Shown piece by piece: positions 8,848-63,664 of a stretch of DNA of 64,000 bases. Under the pieces are notes generated by a model. The model was not told the DNA's origin, searched no databases, and saw only the letters and a list, made by a program, of their open reading frames with translations. A program made the position numbers and the translations under genes. This stretch comes from a bacterium (lineage in GTDB: Bacteria; Patescibacteriota; Saccharimonadia; Saccharimonadales; Saccharimonadaceae), in contig CAVFLV010000014.1 of NCBI GenBank assembly GCA_963623485.1, positions 6,461-70,460 on the forward strand, read 5' to 3'. Each line of letters begins with the position of its first letter. The stretch's first letter is position 1.

Positions 8848-9507
8848 ATGTATATCGTCATCGAAGGCCAAGACGGCACCGGCAAATCTACGCAGGCAAA
8901 ACTACTCAAAGAGCATTTTGAAACTGCGGGGCGCGAAGTTGTCATGCTCGAAGAACCCGACGGCGACCTGCCCCAGGCCCACGATTTACACGACATGATT
9001 TTAACTCGTGGCTACCAACTCGAGCCTTTGACTAACGTTTTATTATTCACCGCCGCCCGCGTGGAACTTTGGAAAAAGTTGGCCGAGCCGGTCTTAAAAC
9101 GTGGCGGCATTGTGATTTCTGCCCGCAATTATTGGTCGACTCTGGCTTACCAGGCCTACGGCGAGGGCGTTTCGAAGCACAAAATCATTCGTTTGACTAA
9201 AGACCTACTCCCCGAAAAATATTTCACGCCGGATTTTGGTTTTATTTTAGTGGTTTCGGACGAGGAACGCCTAAAACGTCAAACCGGTCGGGGCAAAGCC
9301 ACCGAAACTTTTGAAGCCAAAAACAACGATTTTCAAAATCGCGTCAATGCCGCCTACCCCAAAATCGCGAAAGACTTTCAACTCAAACTTATCGACGCCT
9401 CGCGGAGCATCGATGAAATCTTCGCCGAAATTTATTCCGTAGTATCCGCAAACTGCGAATTATGTAGTTCGGCAAAGAATCCGTCTAGCTTGAGTAGCTC
9501 GTCATAA
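8848..9507 (+). CDS. tmk: thymidylate kinase
   Basis: MYIVIEGQDGTGKST P-loop. GGAGAA SD precedes ATG 8848 (track ORF starts at 8836). Confidence 0.9.
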   Translation: MYIVIEGQDGTGKSTQAKLLKEHFETAGREVVMLEEPDGDLPQAHDLHDMILTRGYQLEPLTNVLLFTAARVELWKKLAEPVLKRGGIVISARNYWSTLAYQAYGEGVSKHKIIRLTKDLLPEKYFTPDFGFILVVSDEERLKRQTGRGKATETFEAKNNDFQNRVNAAYPKIAKDFQLKLIDASRSIDEIFAEIYSVVSANCELCSSAKNPSSLSSSS

Positions 9508-11228
9508 GTTCCCTGCTCGACAATATTCCCGTCGCGCATCACCAAAATCAAATCCGAATTGCGGATAGTCGACAGCCGGTGAGCAATCACAAACGACGTC
9601 CGTCCGGCGGTCAATTTTTCAAACGAATCTTGGATTAATTGTTCGGTTCGAGTGTCCACGTTCGAGGTCGCCTCGTCTAAAATCATCATCGGCGGATTTT
9701 TAATCATCGCCCGTGCAATCGTAATCAACTGTTTTTCGCCTGCCGACACGTTGTCCGAGTCCTCGCTAATCACGGTCTTATAACCTTTCGGCAGCGCCTC
9801 GATAATATGATGCACATTGCTCGCCTTCGCGGCCTTTTTGATTTCGTCTAGGCTCGCGTCCTGCCGACCGTAGCGCAGATTATCTTCAATCGTTCCGCTA
9901 AACAGCCAAGTGTCCTGCAAAACCATACCAAACATCCCGCGCACCTCGCTCCGTTTCATTTCGGTAGTCGGCACACCGTCAATCGTGATATATCCGGCAG
10001 TCGGGTCGTAAAAACGCATCAACAAATTAATCAAAGTAGTTTTTCCGGCGCCAGTCGGCCCAACAATCGCCACTTTCATCCCCAGCTTCACCTCGACCGA
10101 AAAGTCGCGAATCACCGGCGTTTCTGGGTTGTAGCCAAAGTTAACTTCATGAAATTCAACCTGCCCGCGCACTTTTTTGATTTTTTCCGCCAAATTTTTG
10201 TCCGAACTTTCTTCCGGCTCGTTCAAAAAATCAAAAATCCGCTCGCTCGCCGCCAGTAGCGATTGAATGGTCGAAGTCGTAGATGCAATTTCTGTAATCG
10301 GGCGGTGGAATCGCGACACATATTGCAAGAAAGCCTGAATGTTCCCGATATTGATTTTGCCTTCAATCACAAACAGCCCGCCGAGAATACACACCGCAAC
10401 ATAGCCGAGGTTAGTAAAAATCCCCGTCACCGGATACGACAGCGACGAAAAGATTTGTGCCTTCGCCGTCGCGGTGGTTAACTTTTTGTTGGTCTGCTCA
10501 AAATCTTCAATCGACGCTTCCTCGTGCGAGTTGGATTTTATAATCACTTGCCCCGCATAATTTTCCTCAATTTTACCGTTCAAAATCCCAAGCAGCGTGC
10601 GCTGTTCACGGAAATATTTTTGCGCAAACTTCATAATAATCCCCACCACCACAATCGATAGTGGCACCACCACAAACGACACAATCGATAGCGGAACACT
10701 AATCAGTAACATCATCACCATTACGCCAATCAGAGTCGTAAGGCTCAGCGACACGTCCGCAATTTCTTGCGACATGGAAGTCGCCAGCACGTCCACGTCG
10801 TTCGTCATTCGTGACAAAGTGTCGCCGTGTTTGTGCTTATCGAAATACGCAATCGGCAAGCGCGAAATTTTGTCGATAATTTTGAGCCGTAAATCTTGGG
10901 TGTATTTCGCCGTCGTCACCGCAAGAATATAAGCCTGCGCGTAATTCAGCCCCGACGAAATCAGAAACAGCGCCACCGCCAGCCCAGCTTTCTGACCGAT
11001 CGCTCCAAAATCAATTTCCGGATAAGTGTCCACCGCAATATTGGTCATATCGCCCAAAATTTTCGGCACAAACAGTCCAATCACCGCCGAGCCAATCGCG
11101 AGCAAAATCGAAATGACAATCTTCAGCCGATATTTTTTAATCGAACCGAAAAAATTATTCAACGCTTTTTTGCTATCCTTGGCTTTTTCTCCGCCGCCAC
11201 TATGCTCCATGTTTTCCTTCCTCCGCAA
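9432..11228 (-). CDS. ABC exporter, fused permease/ATPase
   Basis: Six-TM N-terminal domain. GPTGAGKTT Walker A, VSAGEKQ signature, MMILDEATS Walker B. Confidence 0.9.
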   Translation of the reverse strand: MRRKENMEHSGGGEKAKDSKKALNNFFGSIKKYRLKIVISILLAIGSAVIGLFVPKILGDMTNIAVDTYPEIDFGAIGQKAGLAVALFLISSGLNYAQAYILAVTTAKYTQDLRLKIIDKISRLPIAYFDKHKHGDTLSRMTNDVDVLATSMSQEIADVSLSLTTLIGVMVMMLLISVPLSIVSFVVVPLSIVVVGIIMKFAQKYFREQRTLLGILNGKIEENYAGQVIIKSNSHEEASIEDFEQTNKKLTTATAKAQIFSSLSYPVTGIFTNLGYVAVCILGGLFVIEGKINIGNIQAFLQYVSRFHRPITEIASTTSTIQSLLAASERIFDFLNEPEESSDKNLAEKIKKVRGQVEFHEVNFGYNPETPVIRDFSVEVKLGMKVAIVGPTGAGKTTLINLLMRFYDPTAGYITIDGVPTTEMKRSEVRGMFGMVLQDTWLFSGTIEDNLRYGRQDASLDEIKKAAKASNVHHIIEALPKGYKTVISEDSDNVSAGEKQLITIARAMIKNPPMMILDEATSNVDTRTEQLIQDSFEKLTAGRTSFVIAHRLSTIRNSDLILVMRDGNIVEQGTYDELLKLDGFFAELHNSQFADTTE

Positions 11229-45991: not shown

Positions 45992-46074
45992 ATTTCCTCC
46001 TTGCTTTCATTATATTATAATCTATGGCAAATTCCAACCGAAATACACCGAAATTGTGCTAAAATGAGGGTAAC

Positions 46075-46803
46075 ATGACGAAAAAATCATCAAAACGCCA
46101 GTTTGTATCCCAAAAATCTAATCCGACCGGGCCTTCAAAAACCGTTCCGGCCGTTCGTAGCCGCACGGTGGTCTATTCTGGTGCATTGTTTATTGCCGTA
46201 AATTTTTTGCTCGCGATATTTAACTTCTTTGCTGGAATTTTGTCGAACTCTCTCGCGATTATCTCTGACGCGGCGCACAGCCTGATCGACTCCGCCTCTG
46301 GTTTTATCATCATCATTAGCGAAAAACTCGCCAACTCTACTAAATTCAGCCCTCATCGCGCCAAAATCGAGCGCATCGCCACCATTTTTGTAGCTTTAAT
46401 TATTGTTGCCGTTGGCGCGCATCTTGTCATCGAGGCTGTCGAGAAGATTTTTACCCCCGAGCCGGTCGATTACCCTCCGCTCACGCTCGCGATTTTGGTG
46501 GTCGGGCTAATTATGAAATATGCCCTCGCGATATATCTAAAACGCACCGGGCAGAAACTCAATTCCAGCGTTCTCACTGCCTCTGGCGCCGAGACGATGA
46601 ACGACGCCTGGATTTCGGTCGCTGTGCTGGCTTCGGCACTAATTTATCTGATTTTCAATATCGACCTCGAGGCTTACCTTACCCTTGCGATTGCTGTTGT
46701 AATTATCAAAATCGGCGCCGAATTCATTTTTCCGCATCTTTCCGCCCATCACCACCATCCCTTCGAGTCCAATCCCGACCACGACCATTGTGAAAAACCC
46801 TAA
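46075..46803 (+). CDS. cation diffusion facilitator (CDF) family transporter, short form with His-rich tail
   Basis: AIISDAAHSLIDS motif in TM2, six TM helices, C-terminal SAHHHHPFESNPDHDHC. Confidence 0.75.
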   Translation: MTKKSSKRQFVSQKSNPTGPSKTVPAVRSRTVVYSGALFIAVNFLLAIFNFFAGILSNSLAIISDAAHSLIDSASGFIIIISEKLANSTKFSPHRAKIERIATIFVALIIVAVGAHLVIEAVEKIFTPEPVDYPPLTLAILVVGLIMKYALAIYLKRTGQKLNSSVLTASGAETMNDAWISVAVLASALIYLIFNIDLEAYLTLAIAVVIIKIGAEFIFPHLSAHHHHPFESNPDHDHCEKP

Positions 46804-46857
46804 ATTTTAACAAAATCCTTGGCAGCAAACATAATTTTTGATATAATAAACCTAGTT

Positions 46858-46943
46858 GCTGGAGTCGTCTAGTGGCAATGACAAGAGACTGTAAATCTCT
46901 CGCGCTTCGCGCTTCGTAGGTTCGAGTCCTACCTCCAGCACCA
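46858..46943 (+). tRNA. tRNA-Tyr (anticodon GTA), long variable arm
   Basis: Acceptor GCTGGAG/CTCCAGC, anticodon loop CTGTAAA, variable arm CGCGCTTCGCGC, T arm GTAGG TTCGAGT CCTAC, encoded ACCA. Confidence 0.93.
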
Positions 46944-46998
46944 CGTCCTATCGGACGCACATCAAAAATCAGGACGTCGGATTTCGCTTCGCTCAATG

Positions 46999-47019
46999 CG
47001 AGTCCTACCTCCAGCACCA
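46999..47019 (+). repeat. perfect 21-nt duplicate of the tRNA-Tyr 3' end (att-like scar)
   Basis: cgagtcctacctccagcacca occurs at 46923-46943 (inside the tRNA) and again at 46999-47019. The preceding ~20 nt resemble a degenerate variable arm. Confidence 0.9.
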
Positions 47020-47087
47020 CATTTTAAAAAACTACAACTCCTTCAGGGGTCTTTTTTATTTTTACCAGATATGCTACAATAAAAGCC

Positions 47088-47483
47088 ATGAAAATTGGAA
47101 AAATCATACCAAACGGGGTAAGTTTAGAAAAACACGAGAATGAAACGATAGTATTTTTCACTAACCTTGGGCGTAATATTGAGCTAATCCCACCTTCGAA
47201 TATTCCAAAGACTAAAACTCCCGATTTTACAATGGATGGCAAGTCCTGGGAGATGAAAAGCCCACAAGGCAAAAGCCGCGTCACCGTAGAACATGCTTCT
47301 AAACGCGCGGCGAAATAATCCGAGAACATCGTAATAGACCTAAGGCGCACTCAAATCCCCACAATCCAAGCAAGCCTTTCTTTAGAAAAATTATTTAAAG
47401 CCTCGCGTCGTGTGCGCCGTCTCAAGATTATCACTAGAGAACAGGAATTACTTGACTTTAAAAAAATGAGCATGCTACAATAA
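47088..47483 (+). pseudogene. small PD-(D/E)xK nuclease-like (toxin-domain-like) gene interrupted by an in-frame TAA
   Basis: TPDFTMDGKSWEMKSP gives PD..ExK. The 76-aa ORF stops at TAA 47316-18. The same frame then continues SENIVIDLRRTQ...LLDFKKMSMLQ* to 47483. TGCTACAAT lies 7 nt before the ATG. Confidence 0.6.
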
Positions 47484-47489
47484 AAATAC

Positions 47490-47537
47490 TGAGGGCGACC
47501 TTTTGTCGAAGAGCAAAAGGCCAAGCCCTCATTTTTT
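47490..47537 (+). terminator. intrinsic terminator
   Basis: tgagggc..ccttttg...caaaagg..gccctca followed by tttttt. Confidence 0.75.
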
Positions 47538-47615
47538 GGCGGCAAGCAAAACTACAAAACTGTTTATTTTTTTATCTTTTCTACAAAAATATGTGATATA
47601 ATAGGAAAAGAACAC

Positions 47616-47691
47616 GCCGCGATAGCTCAGTTGGTAGAGCGCATCCATGGTAAGGATGAGGTCACCGGTTCAAACCCGGTTCGCGGCTCCA
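47616..47691 (+). tRNA. tRNA-Thr (anticodon GGT)
   Basis: Acceptor GCCGCGA/TCGCGGC, anticodon stem-loop CATCC ATGGTAA GGATG, T arm ACCGG TTCAAAC CCGGT, encoded TCCA. Confidence 0.93.
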
Positions 47692-47708
47692 GGATACGTC
47701 CCACCTCA

Positions 47709-47739
47709 AGCTCATGAGCCAAAAGTTCATGAGCTTTTT
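47709..47739 (+). terminator. intrinsic terminator after tRNA-Thr
   Basis: agctcatga / tcatgagct stem followed by tttt. Confidence 0.75.
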
Positions 47740-47826
47740 GTCATATCATAGTTCACATAAAAATCCACCGACATCGTCGGGGGCACAGGAGTTCTTTTAA
47801 TCAATGTCAATAGTTTTTACATAATC

Positions 47827-47855
47827 TTGACTATTCAGAGAAAATGTGCTACAAT
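47827..47855 (+). promoter_or_regulatory. consensus promoter of the 61-aa/16-aa micro-operon
   Basis: TTGACT-N17-TACAAT with TGC extension. Confidence 0.65.
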
Positions 47856-47917
47856 GAAAGCATATTTCTGTGGGCAAAATAGCACGTTCCAAAAAATCTC
47901 ATATAGGAGGGGAAGAT

Positions 47918-48103
47918 ATGCAAGTAGATTTTAATGGCAACCTGATTAATTTTGAACTCAGCCGAGCTAACTTTGCCAAAAAATATGGCACAGACAGCCT
48001 CGTCTGGTTCAGCACCAGAGAGACAGACAAAGTCACCGTCGATGAGCAGGCTAGCGATTTATACGCTAAATATGCCTCGATCCATGGCTCACAAGATACT
48101 TAA
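47918..48103 (+). CDS. hypothetical 61-aa protein
   Basis: ATG 47918 preceded by TAGGAGGGG (track ORF starts at GTG 47870). Sequence MQVDFNGNLINFELSRANFAKKYG... Confidence 0.5.
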   Translation: MQVDFNGNLINFELSRANFAKKYGTDSLVWFSTRETDKVTVDEQASDLYAKYASIHGSQDT

Positions 48104-48127
48104 ATCATATGAAAGGGGGTGATGATT

Positions 48128-48178
48128 ATGGTGAGAGATGAAGCTCTAGGCAAGACAAGAGTCTTTTTTTTGCCATAG
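48128..48178 (+). CDS. possible 16-aa mini-ORF MVRDEALGKTRVFFLP
   Basis: AAAGGGGG SD 8 nt upstream. Lies between the 61-aa gene and the terminator. Not in the ORF track. Confidence 0.2.
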   Translation: MVRDEALGKTRVFFLP

Positions 48179-48182
48179 CCGA

Positions 48183-48211
48183 AACCGCCCCTGCCTGGGG
48201 CGGTTATTTTT
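48183..48211 (+). terminator. intrinsic terminator
   Basis: aaccgcccc / ggggcggtt stem followed by attttt. Confidence 0.8.
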
Positions 48212-48291
48212 ATACGGATTCGTTCCATCAAGTAAACTAGACACACCAAAGGGCATCCACCCAGGAGCGTTTTTAGCAAGGGTTAATCCTA

Positions 48292-48320
48292 TTGACTTTT
48301 TGCGCCATTTATGCTACAAT
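48292..48320 (+). promoter_or_regulatory. consensus promoter of the 251-aa orphan gene
   Basis: TTGACT-N17-TACAAT with TGC extension. Confidence 0.65.
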
Positions 48321-48400
48321 AATATCAATGAGGTTGCCACAATCTATTGTCGCCCCTCAAATATAGAGCCGGCGGGCCTAAAACGTAGGAGATATAAACC

Positions 48401-49156
48401 GTGAGTTTATACAGAAATTTTACACTAAAAGAATGGTTATCTATCAACTGCAATACGAAAGATGTCAACGAGCTCTTCAGTAAAGCCCTGAGGGACAACG
48501 ATGAACCCATGGCGGTGCTTGCGCTCGCTGAGCTCATCAAGCGTGGTGATATCGATCTTGTCACATGCGCCATTCAGGAAGCCACAGATGCTGGGTGTTT
48601 CGCGCTCGGTTCGCACTTCTCAGTCGTTTTTGCAAACGCTTTGACACAGTGTGGCAACCGCGATCCAATCCTAAGGCGTATCGGCAAAAATGTCCGCAAA
48701 AAAGGCTTTTGGCCTAAAACGGCGACGGAGTTGCTCGATGGCGCCGATTCGGCGAGTTCTGGATGCCCTGCGGCGCAAGCCAACGTACGAAACCTCGATA
48801 ATCGACTCGGTCGATTTCTGGAGAGTTTCGCACAGGCCGGATGGTTCTCTATAGAATTCGGATTCTTCGTGCCAGGCACCGAGTGGGACCAGCATTGCAA
48901 AGAGTATGTCTCTGTCAACGTTGGTGAGCATTACGGTCTTGTGGTTAAGAACGGATTCGTCCTCAATCGAGAAGAGATTCCGAACGTCTTAGGCATCCTT
49001 GACGCAGCAGGCATCACGGAGACTCTTCCGGCGTTCAAGGAGGAACATCTCGGTGGAAGCATGGGCATGTACACTCTCAATGGTGATAACTGGGTTAGCG
49101 CCGAAGAAACAGAGAAAGACGGTTTCTTCTATATGACTTGTTACTCCATTGAATAA
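48401..49156 (+). CDS. hypothetical protein (251 aa)
   Basis: GTG start preceded by TAGGAGA. Own promoter and terminator. No family recognised. Confidence 0.6.
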   Translation: MSLYRNFTLKEWLSINCNTKDVNELFSKALRDNDEPMAVLALAELIKRGDIDLVTCAIQEATDAGCFALGSHFSVVFANALTQCGNRDPILRRIGKNVRKKGFWPKTATELLDGADSASSGCPAAQANVRNLDNRLGRFLESFAQAGWFSIEFGFFVPGTEWDQHCKEYVSVNVGEHYGLVVKNGFVLNREEIPNVLGILDAAGITETLPAFKEEHLGGSMGMYTLNGDNWVSAEETEKDGFFYMTCYSIE

Positions 49157-49192
49157 TAACCATCTCTAAAGGTGTCGCACCTTGCAAAATGT

Positions 49193-49219
49193 CCCCGGCA
49201 AACCAGTCGGGGCTTTTTT
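49193..49219 (+). terminator. intrinsic terminator
   Basis: ccccg..cgggg stem followed by cttttttg. Confidence 0.7.
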
Positions 49220-49266
49220 GTGTAATAAATAGCAGACAATAAATCCGCAAAAATTCAAGCAAAATC

Positions 49267-49295
49267 TTGACAAATTAAAGCACTTGTGCTATAAT
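49267..49295 (+). promoter_or_regulatory. consensus promoter of the sigma4/alphaCTD gene
   Basis: TTGACA-N17-TATAAT with TGC extension. Confidence 0.7.
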
Positions 49296-49302
49296 GTAGT
49301 TA

Positions 49303-49319
49303 TTGAGCAATTTGCTCAA
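49303..49319. promoter_or_regulatory. 17-bp perfect palindrome (putative operator) just downstream of the -10
   Basis: TTGAGCAA-T-TTGCTCAA, starting 8 nt after TATAAT. Confidence 0.5.
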
Positions 49320-49531
49320 GCTTAGCACCAAGGAGGTGAGTACATTGAAAATTTTAAGAAAGGAGATTTTTCTATTCACGGGCTTCTGCCCATTATTCCC
49401 TATCTCGTTTTAGGTTTTACCTAAAATTTTATATATAGACACAGTGAACATAGATCATGGAGGACGAACACTTGAAAAATACGAACGACGAAAGAAATAG
49501 CATACACGACACTACTACGGAGGTAGAAATT

Positions 49532-50494
49532 ATGGTAAGAAAAGCAGAAACCCTAAAATCTCTTGACGAGCTTAATCTCTCAGCTAGAACCAAAGCTTAT
49601 TTGAACAATAACTTTGATTCTCTCGAAGAGATCATCATAGAAGGCAGAATAGATGCCTATATACATTCTCTGGACGCTCGAAAAAGTTCAATGCCTAAGT
49701 GGAAAACGGAATTAATTTCCGCGCTTACGGATGCTGGTTTTATCCGCCCTGTGAGCCATTTTCGCATGACTTTTTCCGTCAACGCGCTCTATAGTATCGT
49801 CTATTTGGAGTGGAAAGATTGTTTTTACACCAGCATTGGACAGCTTTCTAACGAGCAGTACGAAGAGTTCGAAAGCTTATCTAGCGAAGTTATAGAGGAA
49901 GTAAAGGACTCACTACGGAATAGACTGACCGAAAGAGAATATGAAATATTTTGTCTTAGGTTCGGTCTGGATCGTACCGGCACACTCAAGGACCTTGAAA
50001 CCGTGGGCAAGTATTTTGGCATTACGAGAGAGCGAGTTCGCCAACACGAGGCGAAAGCTCTGAAGAAGTTAAGACACCACATAACTACGCTTCCAGCAAT
50101 TTTCGATGCCCCAAGCAATTTGGAAGAAACCGCTGAAACTCTGCATGCTGAGCTTGAGGAACTTTACGAGAATCCGGCATTCAAGAGAGCAAACGAGATC
50201 ACGCGGGAGTTAGAACACATGAAAAAGTCGCCGTTCAAGTATGATTGCAAATGCCTCAAGACAGAAGCGTTAGACGATCCTTTTATCGACGATTTGAATC
50301 TGAGTGTTCGTGCGTTTTGCTGCTTAAAGCGCGCCGGAATCAACACCGTATCCGATATTATCGAGCTACCGAAAGATGATTGGTTTAAGATTAGAAATCT
50401 TGGCCGCAAGACCCTGAAAGAGGTGGTAGAAAAAATGCACGCTGCGGGATACAATGAGTTTTATGTCGATATTCCGCCTTTTATGCCACGTTAA
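49532..50494 (+). CDS. composite DNA-binding protein: alphaCTD-like, sigma-70 region 4, alphaCTD-like
   Basis: N-terminal LDELNLSARTKAYL. Middle LTEREYEIFCLRFGL..TLKDLETVGKYFGITRERVRQHEAKALKKLR (sigma region 4 HTH). C-terminal IDDLNLSVRAFCCLKRAGINTVSDII..IRNLGRKTLKEVVEKM (RpoA alphaCTD-like HhH). ATG 49532 follows GGAGG. The track ORF starts at 49457. Confidence 0.65.
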   Translation: MVRKAETLKSLDELNLSARTKAYLNNNFDSLEEIIIEGRIDAYIHSLDARKSSMPKWKTELISALTDAGFIRPVSHFRMTFSVNALYSIVYLEWKDCFYTSIGQLSNEQYEEFESLSSEVIEEVKDSLRNRLTEREYEIFCLRFGLDRTGTLKDLETVGKYFGITRERVRQHEAKALKKLRHHITTLPAIFDAPSNLEETAETLHAELEELYENPAFKRANEITRELEHMKKSPFKYDCKCLKTEALDDPFIDDLNLSVRAFCCLKRAGINTVSDIIELPKDDWFKIRNLGRKTLKEVVEKMHAAGYNEFYVDIPPFMPR

Positions 50495-50537
50495 TTCCTT
50501 TCTTAAAATAATCGCTCTTATTTTAAGAGCAAGAAGT

Positions 50538-50563
50538 CCTCGACAAACCAGTCGGGGCTTTTT
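50538..50563 (+). terminator. intrinsic terminator
   Basis: cctcgac / gtcgggg stem followed by cttttt. Confidence 0.7.
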
Positions 50564-50649
50564 GCTTTTTGTTGACAGCTACTAAAACAAAAAGAGCATT
50601 AAGTATTTATGACCAATAAAAAAGGCCCACTTTTCAAGCGAGCCTTAAG

Positions 50650-51396
50650 TTATTCCGCTGTGTCCCATTCACCGATTTCATCGGCGTCATCGTCGGCATA
50701 TTCGTCGGCGTCGTCCTCGAGGTCTAAATCGAAGAACTCGCTTGAGCTTTCCAAGCCTTCTGAGCCGTCAGATTCATCGAAATCTTTCGAATCGTCGAAA
50801 TCCTCAGGTTCATCCATTCCCATTGCTGGTTTTTCGCGGACCGTCACGAGCGGAACGAGCTCTGGCGTATCCATAGGAGAACACCAGCCGATCTCGCGCG
50901 ACATGTAACGAGGCTTGATAACCTTCATTTCCGGCCCCTCGATTTCCTCTTCGGGATAGACGTAATATCCATCCTCTACCCTGAGAACTTCGAGAGCCCT
51001 AAGCAAGTCAAGGACATCGCCCAGTCGTCCGCCGAATCCTCCGTTTCTGCCGAACATTGATTCATGTAGAATAAATCTTCTATTCGGGAAGCCGTCCTCT
51101 ACATCTTCTTCGATGTAGTAATCACGGCATCCTGAGACGCCATCATGGTAGCAGAGACGATAATAATGTCGCCTCTCAACAACTGACATCTTCTCGCCGG
51201 TTTCTTTCTCATATTCGATCAGGAATCGACCGAGCGCCGCGTATAACTCGTACATAGTCATATCCCGACCGCCTTTCTTTTTGACGGTAAGTCTATCGTC
51301 AAATTCGTCGTAGTCTACGACGAAGCGTGTTATTGTAGCATCACTCCAATCTGCTACGTCTCCGTCTACTACAAATAATCTTCTAAAATCTTTCAT
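50650..51396 (-). CDS. hypothetical protein with strongly acidic C-terminal tail
   Basis: ATG 51396 preceded by GGAAAGGGG (track start 51432). The last ~55 aa are about 50 % Asp/Glu (DEPEDFDDSKDFDESDGSEG..DDADEYADDDADE). Confidence 0.6.
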   Translation of the reverse strand: MKDFRRLFVVDGDVADWSDATITRFVVDYDEFDDRLTVKKKGGRDMTMYELYAALGRFLIEYEKETGEKMSVVERRHYYRLCYHDGVSGCRDYYIEEDVEDGFPNRRFILHESMFGRNGGFGGRLGDVLDLLRALEVLRVEDGYYVYPEEEIEGPEMKVIKPRYMSREIGWCSPMDTPELVPLVTVREKPAMGMDEPEDFDDSKDFDESDGSEGLESSSEFFDLDLEDDADEYADDDADEIGEWDTAE

Positions 51397-51465
51397 GGTT
51401 ACCCCTTTCCGCGCCCCCCTTGGGCACAACAAAATTAAACTACTATGTTTTTAACATCTTTTTCC

Positions 51466-51494
51466 ATTATAACACGAACAGTCCAAAAAGTCAA
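51466..51494 (-). promoter_or_regulatory. consensus promoter of the acidic-tail gene
   Basis: Minus strand TTGACT-N17-TATAAT with TGT extension. Confidence 0.65.
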
Positions 51495-51544
51495 TAGTTC
51501 CTCTGAATTTGGTTGAGCTATTTTCGCGAAAATAAATAATCCAA

Positions 51545-51572
51545 TTAAAATGCCCGAACTTTTCGTTCGGGC
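51545..51572 (-). terminator. intrinsic terminator of the 125-aa gene
   Basis: GCCCGAAC / GTTCGGGC stem followed on the minus strand by ATTTTAATT. Confidence 0.7.
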
Positions 51573-51591
51573 AAGATGAAAAATGGATTGG

Positions 51592-51969
51592 TTATTCCCC
51601 AGGGAATAACATGATTTCGCCCGTACGGCGCTTAGTGTCGTAAAACGCCCTAAACCTGTACAGGTGAAATACTTTCGACGAGCTATTGTCGAAAGCGTTT
51701 AGGTCTGCGCGGCAATAACCATGCAGGTTGAATTTATTTCCAGAGCCGTCCTCATATTCGAGGCCGGTTATCCTGACATCATCAACCGGCAGTGGTATGT
51801 ATCCGCTACACAGTCGGTCTTGCGGATATGTATATCCAGCTGCGACGTTGAAGTCGACCCGGATATCACAATTGTCACTATACGCGTATTTACACGCGTC
51901 AAACAACAAGTCCTTGCTAGGCCCAAGGACTATCCGATAAACCTTCTGCTCTCCATTTTTGGTATTCAT
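51592..51969 (-). CDS. hypothetical protein (125 aa)
   Basis: AAAGGAGG SD. Own promoter and terminator. No family recognised. Confidence 0.6.
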   Translation of the reverse strand: MNTKNGEQKVYRIVLGPSKDLLFDACKYAYSDNCDIRVDFNVAAGYTYPQDRLCSGYIPLPVDDVRITGLEYEDGSGNKFNLHGYCRADLNAFDNSSSKVFHLYRFRAFYDTKRRTGEIMLFPGE

Positions 51970-52054
51970 ACGAATACCTCCTTTCTAATGTGCTACCAGC
52001 CACATACATGGTCTGGCAAAAAGATTTTAGCCCTAAGCGCAGGCTAATACTTCC

Positions 52055-52083
52055 ATTGTATCACATTTTGTCCAAAATGTCAA
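52055..52083 (-). promoter_or_regulatory. consensus promoter of the 125-aa gene
   Basis: Minus strand TTGACA-N17-TACAAT with TGA extension. Confidence 0.65.
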
Positions 52084-52173
52084 TATATTATATGTTTCCC
52101 ATAGTGCAATCAACTATTTTAACGAATCCCTCTCCTCGACGCAATAGCTGATGATTCCAGAGGCGGATTTGAC

Positions 52174-52938
52174 CTAAATTCGCTTCCTGCCAGCATGGGA
52201 TTTGACGACTTTTGGAGTGGTGGACTTGTGCTCTGCTGGTGTTCGTGTGGCTGCCCGAGCCTTGACTTTTGCTTGCGCCCGCGCCCTCGCCTGCTCTCTA
52301 GCCCGCTGATGCTTAGCCTCGGTTTCTTTTACGATTCTCGCCTCAATTCGCGCCGCCGTCGCCGTCGCTGCCTCGGTGTCGCCCGCATTCTCGTAAATCG
52401 CCAAAATCTGGCGCAGAGTCGAGACTTTCGGGTCTAATTCGTAGGCATTTTCGAGCGCCTCGATGGCTTTTTTGTTGCTTCCGAGCTGTTCCTCGGCCTT
52501 GGCCAGGGCAATATATCGCGCCGGCACGTCGCCCTCGAGCTTAATCGCCTGCAAAAACGCCATTTCCGCCTTTTCGTACGCCCCCGTTTCGAGATAAATC
52601 AGCCCCACGTTATGAATCGACGCCGGATTATTATCGAGCGACTGCGCAATTTCAAAACATTCCACCGCCTCGTCAAACTTCTGTTCCTTGGCATACAAAA
52701 TCCCCAACCGGTTATACGCCGCTGCATTTTTTTCGTCAAACTTCAAAATCGTGAGCAATGCCTTTTCCGCCCGAAACGGCTTGCGCTCCTTCATCGAAAC
52801 CTGCGCAATTTGCCATAATTTTTTCATCTGCGCCGTGTATTTTGGCGACTTTTCCTCGACTTTTTTCTGACGCGGTTCCAGCGGAAAGAAAAACGCCAAA
52901 TAAATCACAAAAATCAGTATTATAAAGACCGCAACCAT
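52174..52938 (-). CDS. membrane-anchored TPR-repeat protein with basic C-terminal tail
   Basis: N-terminal TM and about 4 TPR-like repeats (AAYNRLGILYAKEQKFDEAVECFEIAQ..). Confidence 0.7.
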   Translation of the reverse strand: MVAVFIILIFVIYLAFFFPLEPRQKKVEEKSPKYTAQMKKLWQIAQVSMKERKPFRAEKALLTILKFDEKNAAAYNRLGILYAKEQKFDEAVECFEIAQSLDNNPASIHNVGLIYLETGAYEKAEMAFLQAIKLEGDVPARYIALAKAEEQLGSNKKAIEALENAYELDPKVSTLRQILAIYENAGDTEAATATAARIEARIVKETEAKHQRAREQARARAQAKVKARAATRTPAEHKSTTPKVVKSHAGRKRI

Positions 52939-62713: not shown

Positions 62714-63664
62714 TTAAATATTTAACTCCGTTAACTTTTCTTTTACTTCATCCAGGGCTTTCTGACCAAAACCTTTCAAATCCTTCAAATCGGTCTCTGA
62801 TAAGGTTACGAGGTCGCGAATTGTGCGAATGTCGTTATTGAGAAGTGCATTGGCGGTACGTGCCGACAAATCCAATTCCTCAATTGGCAACATCAAGCCA
62901 GAATCATCTTCCGCTTCATTCGCCCCAGGGGTTGGCGCCGATTCGACCTTCGTCCCACCGGCCAGCGCCGTATATTGATTGACCAAAATCGCCGCCGCTT
63001 CTTCGAAAGCATCTTTTGGCGTGATGGTTCCATCGGTGTCGATAGTTAGAGTCAGTTGTTGCAAGTTAGTATCTTGCCCGACCCGCGTGTTCTCTACTTT
63101 GTAGCGCACGCGCAAAACCGGTGTAAATACTGCGTCAATCGCAATCATATCCGAATGAACGCGGTCTTCGCTCGCTTGGTCAATCGTTAAGTAGCCTCGC
63201 CCACTTTCTACCACAAAATGCATCTTTAGTACAGTTTTCGGGTCGTCAATATGACAAATCACTTGGTTTGGATTCGCAATTTCGACTTCTGCCGGCAATT
63301 TAATATCACCAGCAATCACCCGCTTGTCACCGTCTTTTTCGGATTGCTTGTCGCCCTTCATCTCGAGAGAAAGTTCAACTGGCGCATCCGTGTGCATTTT
63401 AAAGCGAATGTTTTTGAGGTTCAACATGATATCCATCATATCTTCCCGTACCCCAGGAATTGTGGTGAATTCATGAGTTACGCCCTCAACCGAAAAGGCC
63501 GTAATCGCTGCACCCTTCACGCTCGAAAGGAGCACCCGACGTAGAGAGTTGCCCAAAGTATTGCCATAGCCATAATAAAGTGGCTTAATCACAAACTCTG
63601 CGCTAGTCTCGCTCAGTTCCTTAACGCTGTCGAGCTTTGCTTCGTGAATATTTTTTGTAGTCAT
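62714..63664 (-). CDS. rpoA: DNA-directed RNA polymerase subunit alpha
   Basis: GYGNTLGNSLRRVLLSS NTD. CTD ELDLSARTANALLNNDIRTIRDLV..LKGFGQKALDEVKEKL. Confidence 0.97.
   Translation of the reverse strand: MTTKNIHEAKLDSVKELSETSAEFVIKPLYYGYGNTLGNSLRRVLLSSVKGAAITAFSVEGVTHEFTTIPGVREDMMDIMLNLKNIRFKMHTDAPVELSLEMKGDKQSEKDGDKRVIAGDIKLPAEVEIANPNQVICHIDDPKTVLKMHFVVESGRGYLTIDQASEDRVHSDMIAIDAVFTPVLRVRYKVENTRVGQDTNLQQLTLTIDTDGTITPKDAFEEAAAILVNQYTALAGGTKVESAPTPGANEAEDDSGLMLPIEELDLSARTANALLNNDIRTIRDLVTLSETDLKDLKGFGQKALDEVKEKLTELNI

Follow-up and report, generated by a model that had tools for sequence, protein, structure and literature searches.

A stand-alone fusion of sigma-70 region 4 and an RNA polymerase alpha C-terminal domain in a portable gene cassette of a Nanosyncoccus-like Saccharibacterium

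The fusion gene and its product

The DNA analyzed in this study is a 64-kb stretch of contig CAVFLV010000014.1 (hereafter the window). Judged by its RpoA, which is 86-99% identical to RpoA of Candidatus Saccharibacteria/Nanosyncoccus metagenome-assembled genomes from ruminant guts, the host is an uncultured, Nanosyncoccus-like Saccharibacterium of the rumen. On the forward strand the window carries a gene, here called the fusion gene, whose product joins region 4 of a sigma-70 factor (sigma4) to a canonical RNA polymerase (RNAP) alpha-subunit C-terminal domain (alpha-CTD) and contains no sigma region 2. Both modules are known; their arrangement is recurrent and uncharacterized. The gene and the segments of its product, with lengths in amino acids (aa), are as follows, the selection value being the ratio of nonsynonymous to synonymous substitution rates (dN/dS).

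49532..50494, forward strand: coding sequence of the fusion gene, 320 aa plus stop; dN/dS 0.14 against the L001 orthologue
49532..49756, forward strand: N domain (aa 1-75), helical and tentatively classed as a diverged alpha-CTD; only the first helix-hairpin-helix is clearly recognizable
49757..49885, forward strand: M region (aa 76-118), helices specific to the family and packed with the N domain in the structure model
49886..50089, forward strand: sigma-70 region 4 (4.1 plus the 4.2 helix-turn-helix, HTH), assigned by Pfam, PDB sequence match, Foldseek and retained -35 readers
50090..50266, forward strand: K linker (aa 187-245), a two-helix hairpin with a conserved LPAIF motif that connects sigma4 to the alpha-CTD
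50267..50467, forward strand: canonical alpha-CTD, assigned by Pfam, PDB match, Foldseek and hhalign

The open reading frame (ORF) as such spans 49457..50494 and gives a 345-aa reading. An earlier reading of this DNA from the sequence only (the sequence-only reading) had placed the start at 49457, probably 75 nt too far upstream and within the leader. The likelier start is ATG 49532. It has a GGAGGT 8 nt upstream at the correct spacing, 13 of 32 homologues begin exactly at the equivalent position (MV(R/K)KAE), and in distant homologues with short leaders this is the only start. The ‘T(K/T)EVExM’ found in longer gene calls is the Shine-Dalgarno (SD) sequence read as protein. From the SD, the homologue starts and this translated SD (‘KEVExM’), the product is taken to be 320 aa long. 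Another candidate start is a TTG in the same frame at 49472, which has a GGAGGA of its own. The gene is under purifying selection in every part, dN/dS against the orthologue lying between 0.09 and 0.20 in each of the five segments.

Domain composition

Pfam assigns RNA_pol_A_CTD (E 5.4e-22, 77.7 bits against a cut-off of 23.8) in two stretches, the better one at residues 271-328 (numbered on the 345-aa reading), and Sigma70_r4 (E 6.3e-14, 51.7 bits against a cut-off of 24.1) at residues 156-207. Even at E<=10 it finds neither sigma regions 1, 2 and 3 (Sigma70_r1, r2, r3) nor the alpha N-terminal domain (RNA_pol_L, RNA_pol_A_bac) in the fusion protein. In NCBIfam, sigma models match by region 4 only and rpoA models by the CTD only, all far under their cut-offs: RpoD models score 55-63 bits against 350-570, rpoA equivalog models 50-68 bits against 228-523 (TIGR02027: 67.8 against 227.8), and TIGR02937 scores 37.1 bits against 42.9 over profile positions 95-164 only, which correspond to region 4. 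A tblastn search with E. coli region 2 detected no similarity in the 64-kb window or in any of the other retrieved loci. The sequence-only reading had described region 4 combined with alpha-CTD in the absence of region 2, and had reasoned that such a protein cannot act as a normal sigma factor; these searches bear out both points.

Closest in the PDB to the sigma4 part is region 4 of S. aureus sigmaA (4g6d, E 3e-14), and closest to the C-terminal part are the RpoA CTDs of C. difficile (8i23) and B. subtilis (1z3e), with E-values of 2e-15 to 2e-13. An AlphaFold2 model built from 32 homologues is all-helical (predicted local distance difference test, pLDDT, 88.6; predicted template modelling score, pTM, 0.71). 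With this model Foldseek recovers sigma4 (1rio, TMt 0.88; 4g6d, 0.81) and the alpha-CTD (1z3e, TMt 0.80; 9dvt, 0.85), and no structural match to the whole protein. The fusion of the two domains is thus real and far beyond chance.

The sigma4 module shares 59% identity over 51 residues with region 4 of E. coli sigma70. The C-terminal domain is 56% identical to generic Firmicutes-type RpoA CTDs (hhalign probability 99.85%) and only 32-35% identical to the CTD of the resident RpoA encoded in the window. The sequence-only reading had likened it to the latter; its identity as an alpha-CTD stands, whereas the nearer relatives are of the Firmicutes type, which fits a foreign origin. The resident alpha-CTD (62732-62905) itself diverges from the common bacterial type, with, for example, ANAL in place of ANCL and GFGQKA in place of NLGKKS.

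The residues by which the two modules contact DNA are retained. Sigma4 keeps the equivalents of all the E. coli -35 readers, R584, E585, R586, R588 and Q589, as well as those of T583 and of the backbone-contacting R554 and R562. The alpha-CTD keeps the 265-determinant equivalents R265, C269, N294, G296 and K298; the position of N268 is occupied by Cys, the equivalents of E261 and V287 are altered, and a family-specific LPKDDW motif lies on the ‘287’ surface. Across 114 family members the contact residues are mostly retained (R588 in 72%, E585 in 68%, R265 in 77%, C269 in 71%). Some subfamilies rewrite the recognition helix, for instance to TTKEYIRK or LPRERILH, and these changes suggest the behavior of diversifying transcription factors.

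The N-terminal part is less clear-cut. The sequence-only reading had seen a weaker copy of the alpha-CTD there, and the comparisons divide. Aligned by hhalign, family residues 1-75 match the family's own C-terminal domain over its full length (94.7% probability, E 6e-8) and an independent alignment of ordinary RpoA CTDs (83%, E 9e-6), and BLASTP of the N domain against the window RpoA gives E 4e-4 over 26 aa. Pfam, on the other side, finds no alpha-CTD in the N-terminal fragment alone, a profile search of the PDB with the N domain returns no RpoA, and a confident AlphaFold2 model of aa 1-118 (N plus M) alone (pLDDT 92.3, pTM 0.85) has no Foldseek match in the PDB below E 5. We tentatively read the N domain as a strongly diverged alpha-CTD derivative in which the first helix-hairpin-helix would survive and the second would have been remodelled.

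Genomic location in a hypervariable locus

Across 80 related genomes, genes are mostly arranged as g338-g292-holB-TPR-tRNA-Tyr-tRNA-Thr-CDF-rubrerythrin (TPR, tetratricopeptide repeat; CDF, cation diffusion facilitator), and the gap between the TPR gene and the tRNAs is often shorter than 100 bp. In the window, an insert of about 4.5 kb between the TPR gene and tRNA-Thr carries g125, g260, the fusion gene, g251 and g77, and a further 0.7 kb with a CdiA_C-like fragment separates tRNA-Tyr from tRNA-Thr. The three closest genomes (L096, L097, L159) have no fusion gene, and the only orthologue among the 80 is in L095. Distant relatives occupy the same hotspot in two other species (L147, L172), while homologues elsewhere sit at unrelated chromosomal sites (after rpsI, near prfA, near the H+-pyrophosphatase gene, near tyrS). 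Between species, the fusion gene behaves as a mobile accessory gene, which supports its placement in an accessory island by the sequence-only reading.

No neighboring gene is conserved with it: contexts differ between loci, the neighbors are mutually unrelated and none has a Pfam, PHROG or PADLOC match. Around the fusion gene of the window and its full-length homologues we found no phage genes, the contexts being Saccharibacterial chromosome without a recognizable prophage.

The interval itself, from the TPR gene to tRNA-Tyr/tRNA-Thr (46000-52200 in the window, compared with loci L095-L174), is hypervariable across the 80 Nanosyncoccus genomes, ranging from <100 bp to >6 kb with cargo that differs between genomes. 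Each of the small cargo genes in the window has a separate promoter, TTGACT-17-TGCTACAAT (repeat families D1, D3, D6). At one edge of the hotspot, the 22-nt 3' end of tRNA-Tyr (46923-46944) is repeated exactly at 46999-47020, 55 nt downstream of the tRNA; this duplication looks like the attachment-site scar of an integrative element. A 76-aa ORF at 47088-47318 matches the CdiA_C toxin domain below threshold (Pfam E 2e-5; 25.1 bits, cut-off 26.6) and also has a PHROG match. CdiA_C genes likewise adjoin the fusion-gene homologue in L085. In L082, a gene for a 206-aa protein (9226-9846) lies directly 3' of the homologue and encodes the helix-hairpin-helix-like motif ISELGLKPETEALLEDARFDTVEQLL and a C-terminal HTH-like segment; by eye this protein looks like a distant paralogue, and BLASTP gives no match.

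The promoter-to-terminator cassette

The fusion gene has strong predicted expression signals (promoter, SD and terminator), which form part of a conserved frame around the coding sequence. Parts of the sequence occur in only three sequencing runs, as contigs of unknown type.

49184..49218, forward strand: 35-nt direct repeat, upstream copy, which is also the intrinsic terminator that ends g251, the preceding gene
49267..49295, forward strand: promoter TTGACA-17-TATAAT with a TGn extended -10, 12/12 consensus
49303..49321, forward strand: stem-loop TTGAGCA-ATT-TGCTCAA at the 5' terminus of the transcript
49322..49366, forward strand: leader block TAGCACCAAGGAGGTGAGTAC ATTGAAAATTTTAAGAAAGGAG, 45 nt of nearly invariant nucleotides
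49367..49531, forward strand: remaining 5' leader with hairpins GGGC-TTCT-GCCC and TTTTAGG..CCTAAAA and the SD GGAGGT (49519-49524)
50495..50563, forward strand: 3' trailer with TTCCTTTCTTAAAATAA (the leader complement), hairpin GCTCTTA-TTT-TAAGAGC and intrinsic terminator CCTCGACAAACCAGTCGGGG-TTTTT

At the orthologous locus L001, homology begins at the promoter and ends at the terminator; the trailers are 97% identical and the flanks unrelated. The same promoter recurs in homologous cassettes, and its spacer AATTAAAGCACTTGTGC is conserved among them. The leader block is nearly invariant even between proteins that are only 33-45% identical, and includes a small CACC/GGTG hairpin and a 14-nt stretch, ATTTTAAGAAAGGA (49351-49364), that is perfectly complementary to TCCTTTCTTAAAAT (50496-50509) in the trailer. 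The trailer opens with TTCCTTTCTTAAAAT directly after the stop codon, followed by the hairpin and then the terminator. Distant homologues have less of the remaining leader (49367..49531) or lack it.

A metagenome scan for the leader returned eight loci, three of them in front of fusion-gene homologues and five in front of an unrelated ORF, which encodes an acidic protein of 345-348 aa (MTNAELQV...) without a Pfam match and is followed by the same trailer and terminator. One contig bears both gene types in convergent orientation. The cassette occurs in L179, L181, L182, L183 and L185, and also in L001, L082, L178 and L180. Because leader and trailer also flank an unrelated ORF, and because homology is bounded by promoter and terminator, the fusion gene is one cargo of a portable promoter-leader...trailer-terminator cassette. 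The arrangement may reflect co-regulation, pairing of the 5' and 3' ends of the RNA or recombinational exchange of cassettes. The shared leader and trailer suggest a modular device for gene swapping or co-regulation in the hypervariable loci of Saccharibacteria. Since the same terminator also ends the upstream g251, the unit is bracketed by the 35-nt direct repeat (49184-49218 and 50529-50563, 89% identical, spacing 1345), whose 20-nt core occurs twice in the 64 kb with 0 occurrences expected; by recombination, this repeat may mediate gain or loss of the cassette.

The sequence-only reading had taken the palindrome at 49303-49321, at the gene's own promoter, as operator-like. We reject a DNA operator, since the stem is retained in 12 of 13 independent leaders by G.U wobbles and compensatory double changes while its sequence drifts (GAGCA/TGCTC, GAGCG/CGCTC, GGGCA/TGCTC, GGGTA/TGCCC, GAGG/CCTC, GAGT/ACTC), the conservation expected of a 5' stem-loop in RNA. 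Nor are promoter and leader specific to this putative regulator, given that the unrelated ORF family uses the same ones. Rfam has no match at the gathering threshold in the window and none that is meaningful at E<=1 in 49250-50620.

Within the leader, a 22-codon upstream ORF (49346-49414, TTG start, MKILRKEIFLFTGFCPLFPISF) stands behind the near-perfect SD AAGGAGGTGA. It is probably not a conserved peptide: the start is lost in L085, L093 and L094, the frame differs in L082, and the SD and first codons are conserved at the level of nucleotides only.

Family members and phage relatives

An exhaustive profile search of 1.84 billion representatives gave 262 clusters (at 50% identity) with E<=1e-30, among which we found no named member. 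Scored with hidden Markov models of the individual segments, 264 retrieved proteins fall into the architectures N-M-S4-K-C (74 clusters), S4-C (36), N-M-S4 (23) and N-M-S4-C (21), plus multi-copy arrays, where S4 stands for sigma4, K for the linker and C for the alpha-CTD. A strict N-terminal motif, which sets a lower bound, is present in 3 of 185,579 GTDB species, all of them Saccharibacteria. Our literature search found no paper on the sigma4-alphaCTD architecture itself. What the sequence-only reading had called an unusual fusion is thus a recurrent but uncharacterized family.

Two S4-C proteins, P0065 (203 aa) and P0059 (366 aa), are encoded on phage contigs, in runs of small genes that all point the same way and include those for methylases, AAA_24, DUF669, D5 primase and T4 endonuclease V-like proteins. 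By this gene content the runs are phage early regions. Both proteins align with the window protein contiguously through sigma4, linker and alpha-CTD (BLASTP E 1e-25 and 4e-26, 36% identity, 154-203 columns). The fusion protein consequently consists of a Saccharibacteria-specific N-M part and a sigma4-linker-alphaCTD core common to phages, and such early-region relatives would fit a hijack-type ancestry. Among cultured phages, tblastn against INPHARED gave mostly host rpoD/rpoA-like fragments; in this search for phage relatives the fusion was carried only by unannotated gut phage contigs. A scan of IMG/VR with close patterns returned no relative.

Single modules and repeated modules occur in other settings. 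The cultured Bacillus phage vB_BmeM-Goe8 (Herelleviridae) encodes, in its terminal early-gene region (L091 1959-2591), a 210-aa ‘RNA polymerase subunit alpha’ that is an alpha-CTD only (Pfam E 4e-22) behind an N-terminal 140 aa without assignment. Metagenomic arrays of RNAP-derived domains (P0145, P0204, P0218, P0232, P0167, P0098; loci L175-L177) comprise 7-11 tandem sigma4 modules, eight tandem alpha-CTDs, or three Spo0A_C with one sigma4 and five alpha-CTDs. P0098 combines an alpha-CTD and a sigma4 with a TnsA-like nuclease, and the gene for P0145, on a bacterial contig of 990 kb, has a transposase and a restriction-modification gene as neighbors.

Possible functions of the fusion protein

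Sigma region 4 and the alpha-CTD are the RNAP surfaces used by most activators, anti-sigma factors and phage hijackers. An isolated sigma4 binds -35 DNA and an isolated alpha-CTD binds A/T-rich minor grooves. Neither sigma4 without region 2 nor an alpha-CTD without the alpha N-terminal domain can enter core RNAP. Having no region 2 or 3 and no alpha N-terminal domain, the fusion protein would neither assemble into RNAP as a sigma or alpha subunit nor melt promoters.

We tentatively favor, at a little under an even chance, a stand-alone promoter-DNA-binding regulator or competitor at -35/UP-type sites that competes with, or modulates, sigmaA-RNAP. The protein would be a cytoplasmic DNA-binding regulator made of two RNAP modules that read the upstream half of promoters, sigma4 as the reader of the -35 hexamer and the alpha-CTD as the reader of A/T-rich minor grooves or UP elements, joined by the helical linker and preceded by the family-specific N-M domain, which is probably a degenerate second alpha-CTD. 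Its targets would be -35-like hexamers with flanking A/T tracts, and by binding them it would compete with or modulate sigmaA-RNAP at some promoters. The promoter of its own gene, a perfect consensus with A/T tracts on both sides of the -35, may be one of these. In the hypervariable loci of ruminant Saccharibacteria, the gene travels as a self-contained unit that runs from promoter to terminator. If this is true, a conserved free-standing protein made only of sigma4 and alpha-CTD parts would control or subvert promoter recognition in a novel manner, with a core common to phages and ultra-small epibiotic bacteria. The transcription factors of Saccharibacteria are very few, and an accessory, horizontally moving one would therefore bear on the adaptation of these episymbionts.

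Several points weigh against the regulator. The protein has an isoelectric point of 5.75 overall, and sigma4 is its only basic segment. A near-perfect recognition helix of the primary-sigma type would equally suit mimicry of sigmaA towards the beta-flap, activators or anti-sigma-like phage proteins, and phage relatives in early-gene regions suggest RNAP hijack over ordinary regulation. The leader and promoter are no specific operator of the protein, as the unrelated ORF family shares them. Finally, additional specificity has to be assumed for the N-M domain, since binding of every TTGACA would be globally toxic.

Part of this evidence points to a protein that acts on RNAP itself, which we consider unlikely although worth weighing. 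Here, sigma4 would displace sigmaA region 4 from its site on the tip of the beta-flap, in core enzyme or holoenzyme, and promoter choice would be redirected or blocked by the alpha-CTD module(s), a function inherited from phage early proteins. The contiguous core shared with phage early-gene proteins at 36% identity argues for it, as does the alpha-CTD protein in the terminal early region of a Herelleviridae phage. Region 4 also resembles that of a primary sigma factor (59% to E. coli), its hydrophobic core and flap-pocket positions included, and the commonest residue at the D581 position is Gly (42 of 114 family members). In E. coli, D581G is reported to strengthen flap binding. The flap-pocket residues, however, double as residues of the fold core, and their conservation is therefore uninformative on this point. 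Genes of the Saccharibacterial family lie in chromosomes, outside recognizable prophages, and evolve under purifying selection, and the modules they encode are nearer to the Firmicutes type than to the resident RpoA, which makes their fit to the resident RNAP uncertain.

Less probable still is a decoy or sponge, in which copies of RNAP surfaces (sigma4, alpha-CTD) would titrate the attackers sent by phages or competitors, as a defense, or else host activators and anti-sigma-like factors. The hotspot with its CdiA_C toxin fragments is of a conflict type, the related arrays of sigma4, alpha-CTD and Spo0A_C look more like sponges than like transcription factors, and the TnsA-like nuclease of P0098 gives a layout resembling that of a sensor and effector. 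There are weak PADLOC matches to PglW and MzaA, and the invariant, family-specific Pro and Trp of LPKDDW lie on the ‘287’ protein-contact surface of the alpha-CTD. Yet the fusion protein lacks an effector domain, its gene is without a conserved partner, the PADLOC matches are at domain level only, and a pure protein decoy would need no DNA-contact residues, which are nevertheless retained.

A broader proposal is speculative and, as a whole, improbable. The N-M-sigma4-linker-alphaCTD proteins and the phage sigma4-alphaCTD proteins would together form a previously unrecognized class of ‘upstream-promoter-reader mimics’, that is, free -35/UP-reading heads used in genetic conflict, which plug sigmaA promoters or decoy factors that target sigma4 and alpha-CTD. 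The Saccharibacterial ones would be delivered as interchangeable ORFs in a portable cassette with pairable 5' and 3' untranslated regions.

We see very little chance that the protein is the region-4 half of a two-subunit split sigma factor like SigO-RsoA, with region 2 supplied by the product of another gene. Split sigma factors of this kind were reportedly described in Bacillus by MacLellan and colleagues in 2009, and the presence of region 4 with the absence of region 2 agrees with such a half. The search for a partner was empty on both counts: tblastn detected no region-2-like sequence in the 64-kb window or any fetched locus, and a comparison of the neighbors, which have no Pfam, PHROG or PADLOC match and differ between loci, gave no candidate, although a distant, unlinked partner is conceivable. 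Moreover, the fusion gene is monocistronic, framed by a promoter and a terminator of its own, and a split sigma leaves the alpha-CTD modules without a role. A non-functional chimera or decaying product of recombination, as might be expected in a hypervariable region beside a truncated CdiA_C-like ORF and a duplicated tRNA 3' end, is effectively refuted by an intact ORF of 320 codons with dN/dS 0.14, more than 100 full-length homologues of the same five-segment architecture, the confident AlphaFold2 model and the strong expression signals.

Comparison with known systems

Polypeptides that contribute region 4 alone to initiation (SigO-RsoA) and phage factors that work at the interface of sigma4, beta-flap and -35 element (T4 AsiA/MotA, gp33) are conceptual precedents only for a regulator built from sigma4 and alpha-CTD, as none of them carries an alpha-CTD. 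We detected no relation in sequence or fold between the fusion protein and AsiA, MotA or gp33. Another system with a sigma factor is MZA, an anti-phage system; its MzaA model NF041931 matches the fusion protein by region 4 only (60.7 bits against a cut-off of 800), the PADLOC match is of the same kind, and the full-length architecture of MzaA is not present.

PglW of type 2 BREX/Pgl systems likewise has an alpha-CTD-like helical domain together with HTH modules outside RNAP. Positions 788-857 of the PADLOC PglW profile weakly match residues 233-302 of the fusion protein (E 2e-4), and positions 795-954 match the alphaCTD plus sigma4 part of P0098. The central alpha-CTD-like plus HTH segment of PglW has been interpreted as a nucleic-acid (DNA) binding unit (PMC12839542). 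Unlike the fusion protein, PglW is a kinase/nuclease protein of 1400-1600 aa (Ser/Thr kinase, NERD nuclease) in a multi-gene defense system, and no kinase, nuclease or BREX genes lie around the fusion gene.

The parent subunits are matched in part only. With RpoA, the fusion protein shares a canonical alpha-CTD in its C-terminal 60 residues, the 265 determinant included, and has none of the N-terminal dimerization/assembly domain. With RpoD/SigA, it shares region 4 (59% identity, -35 readers, TM 0.8-0.88); regions 1.1, 1.2, 2, 3 and 3.2 are absent, and with them core binding by region 2 and recognition or melting of the -10 element. The closest counterparts are phage proteins without a name or a characterized member, such as P0065 and P0059, for which the fullest annotation is ‘Sigma70_r4 domain containing protein’ or ‘RNA polymerase, alpha subunit, C-terminal’. 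They differ in having no N-M domain and in being phage-encoded, next to methylases, primase and AAA_24, and they share with the fusion protein the same order of sigma4, linker and alpha-CTD without sigma region 2.

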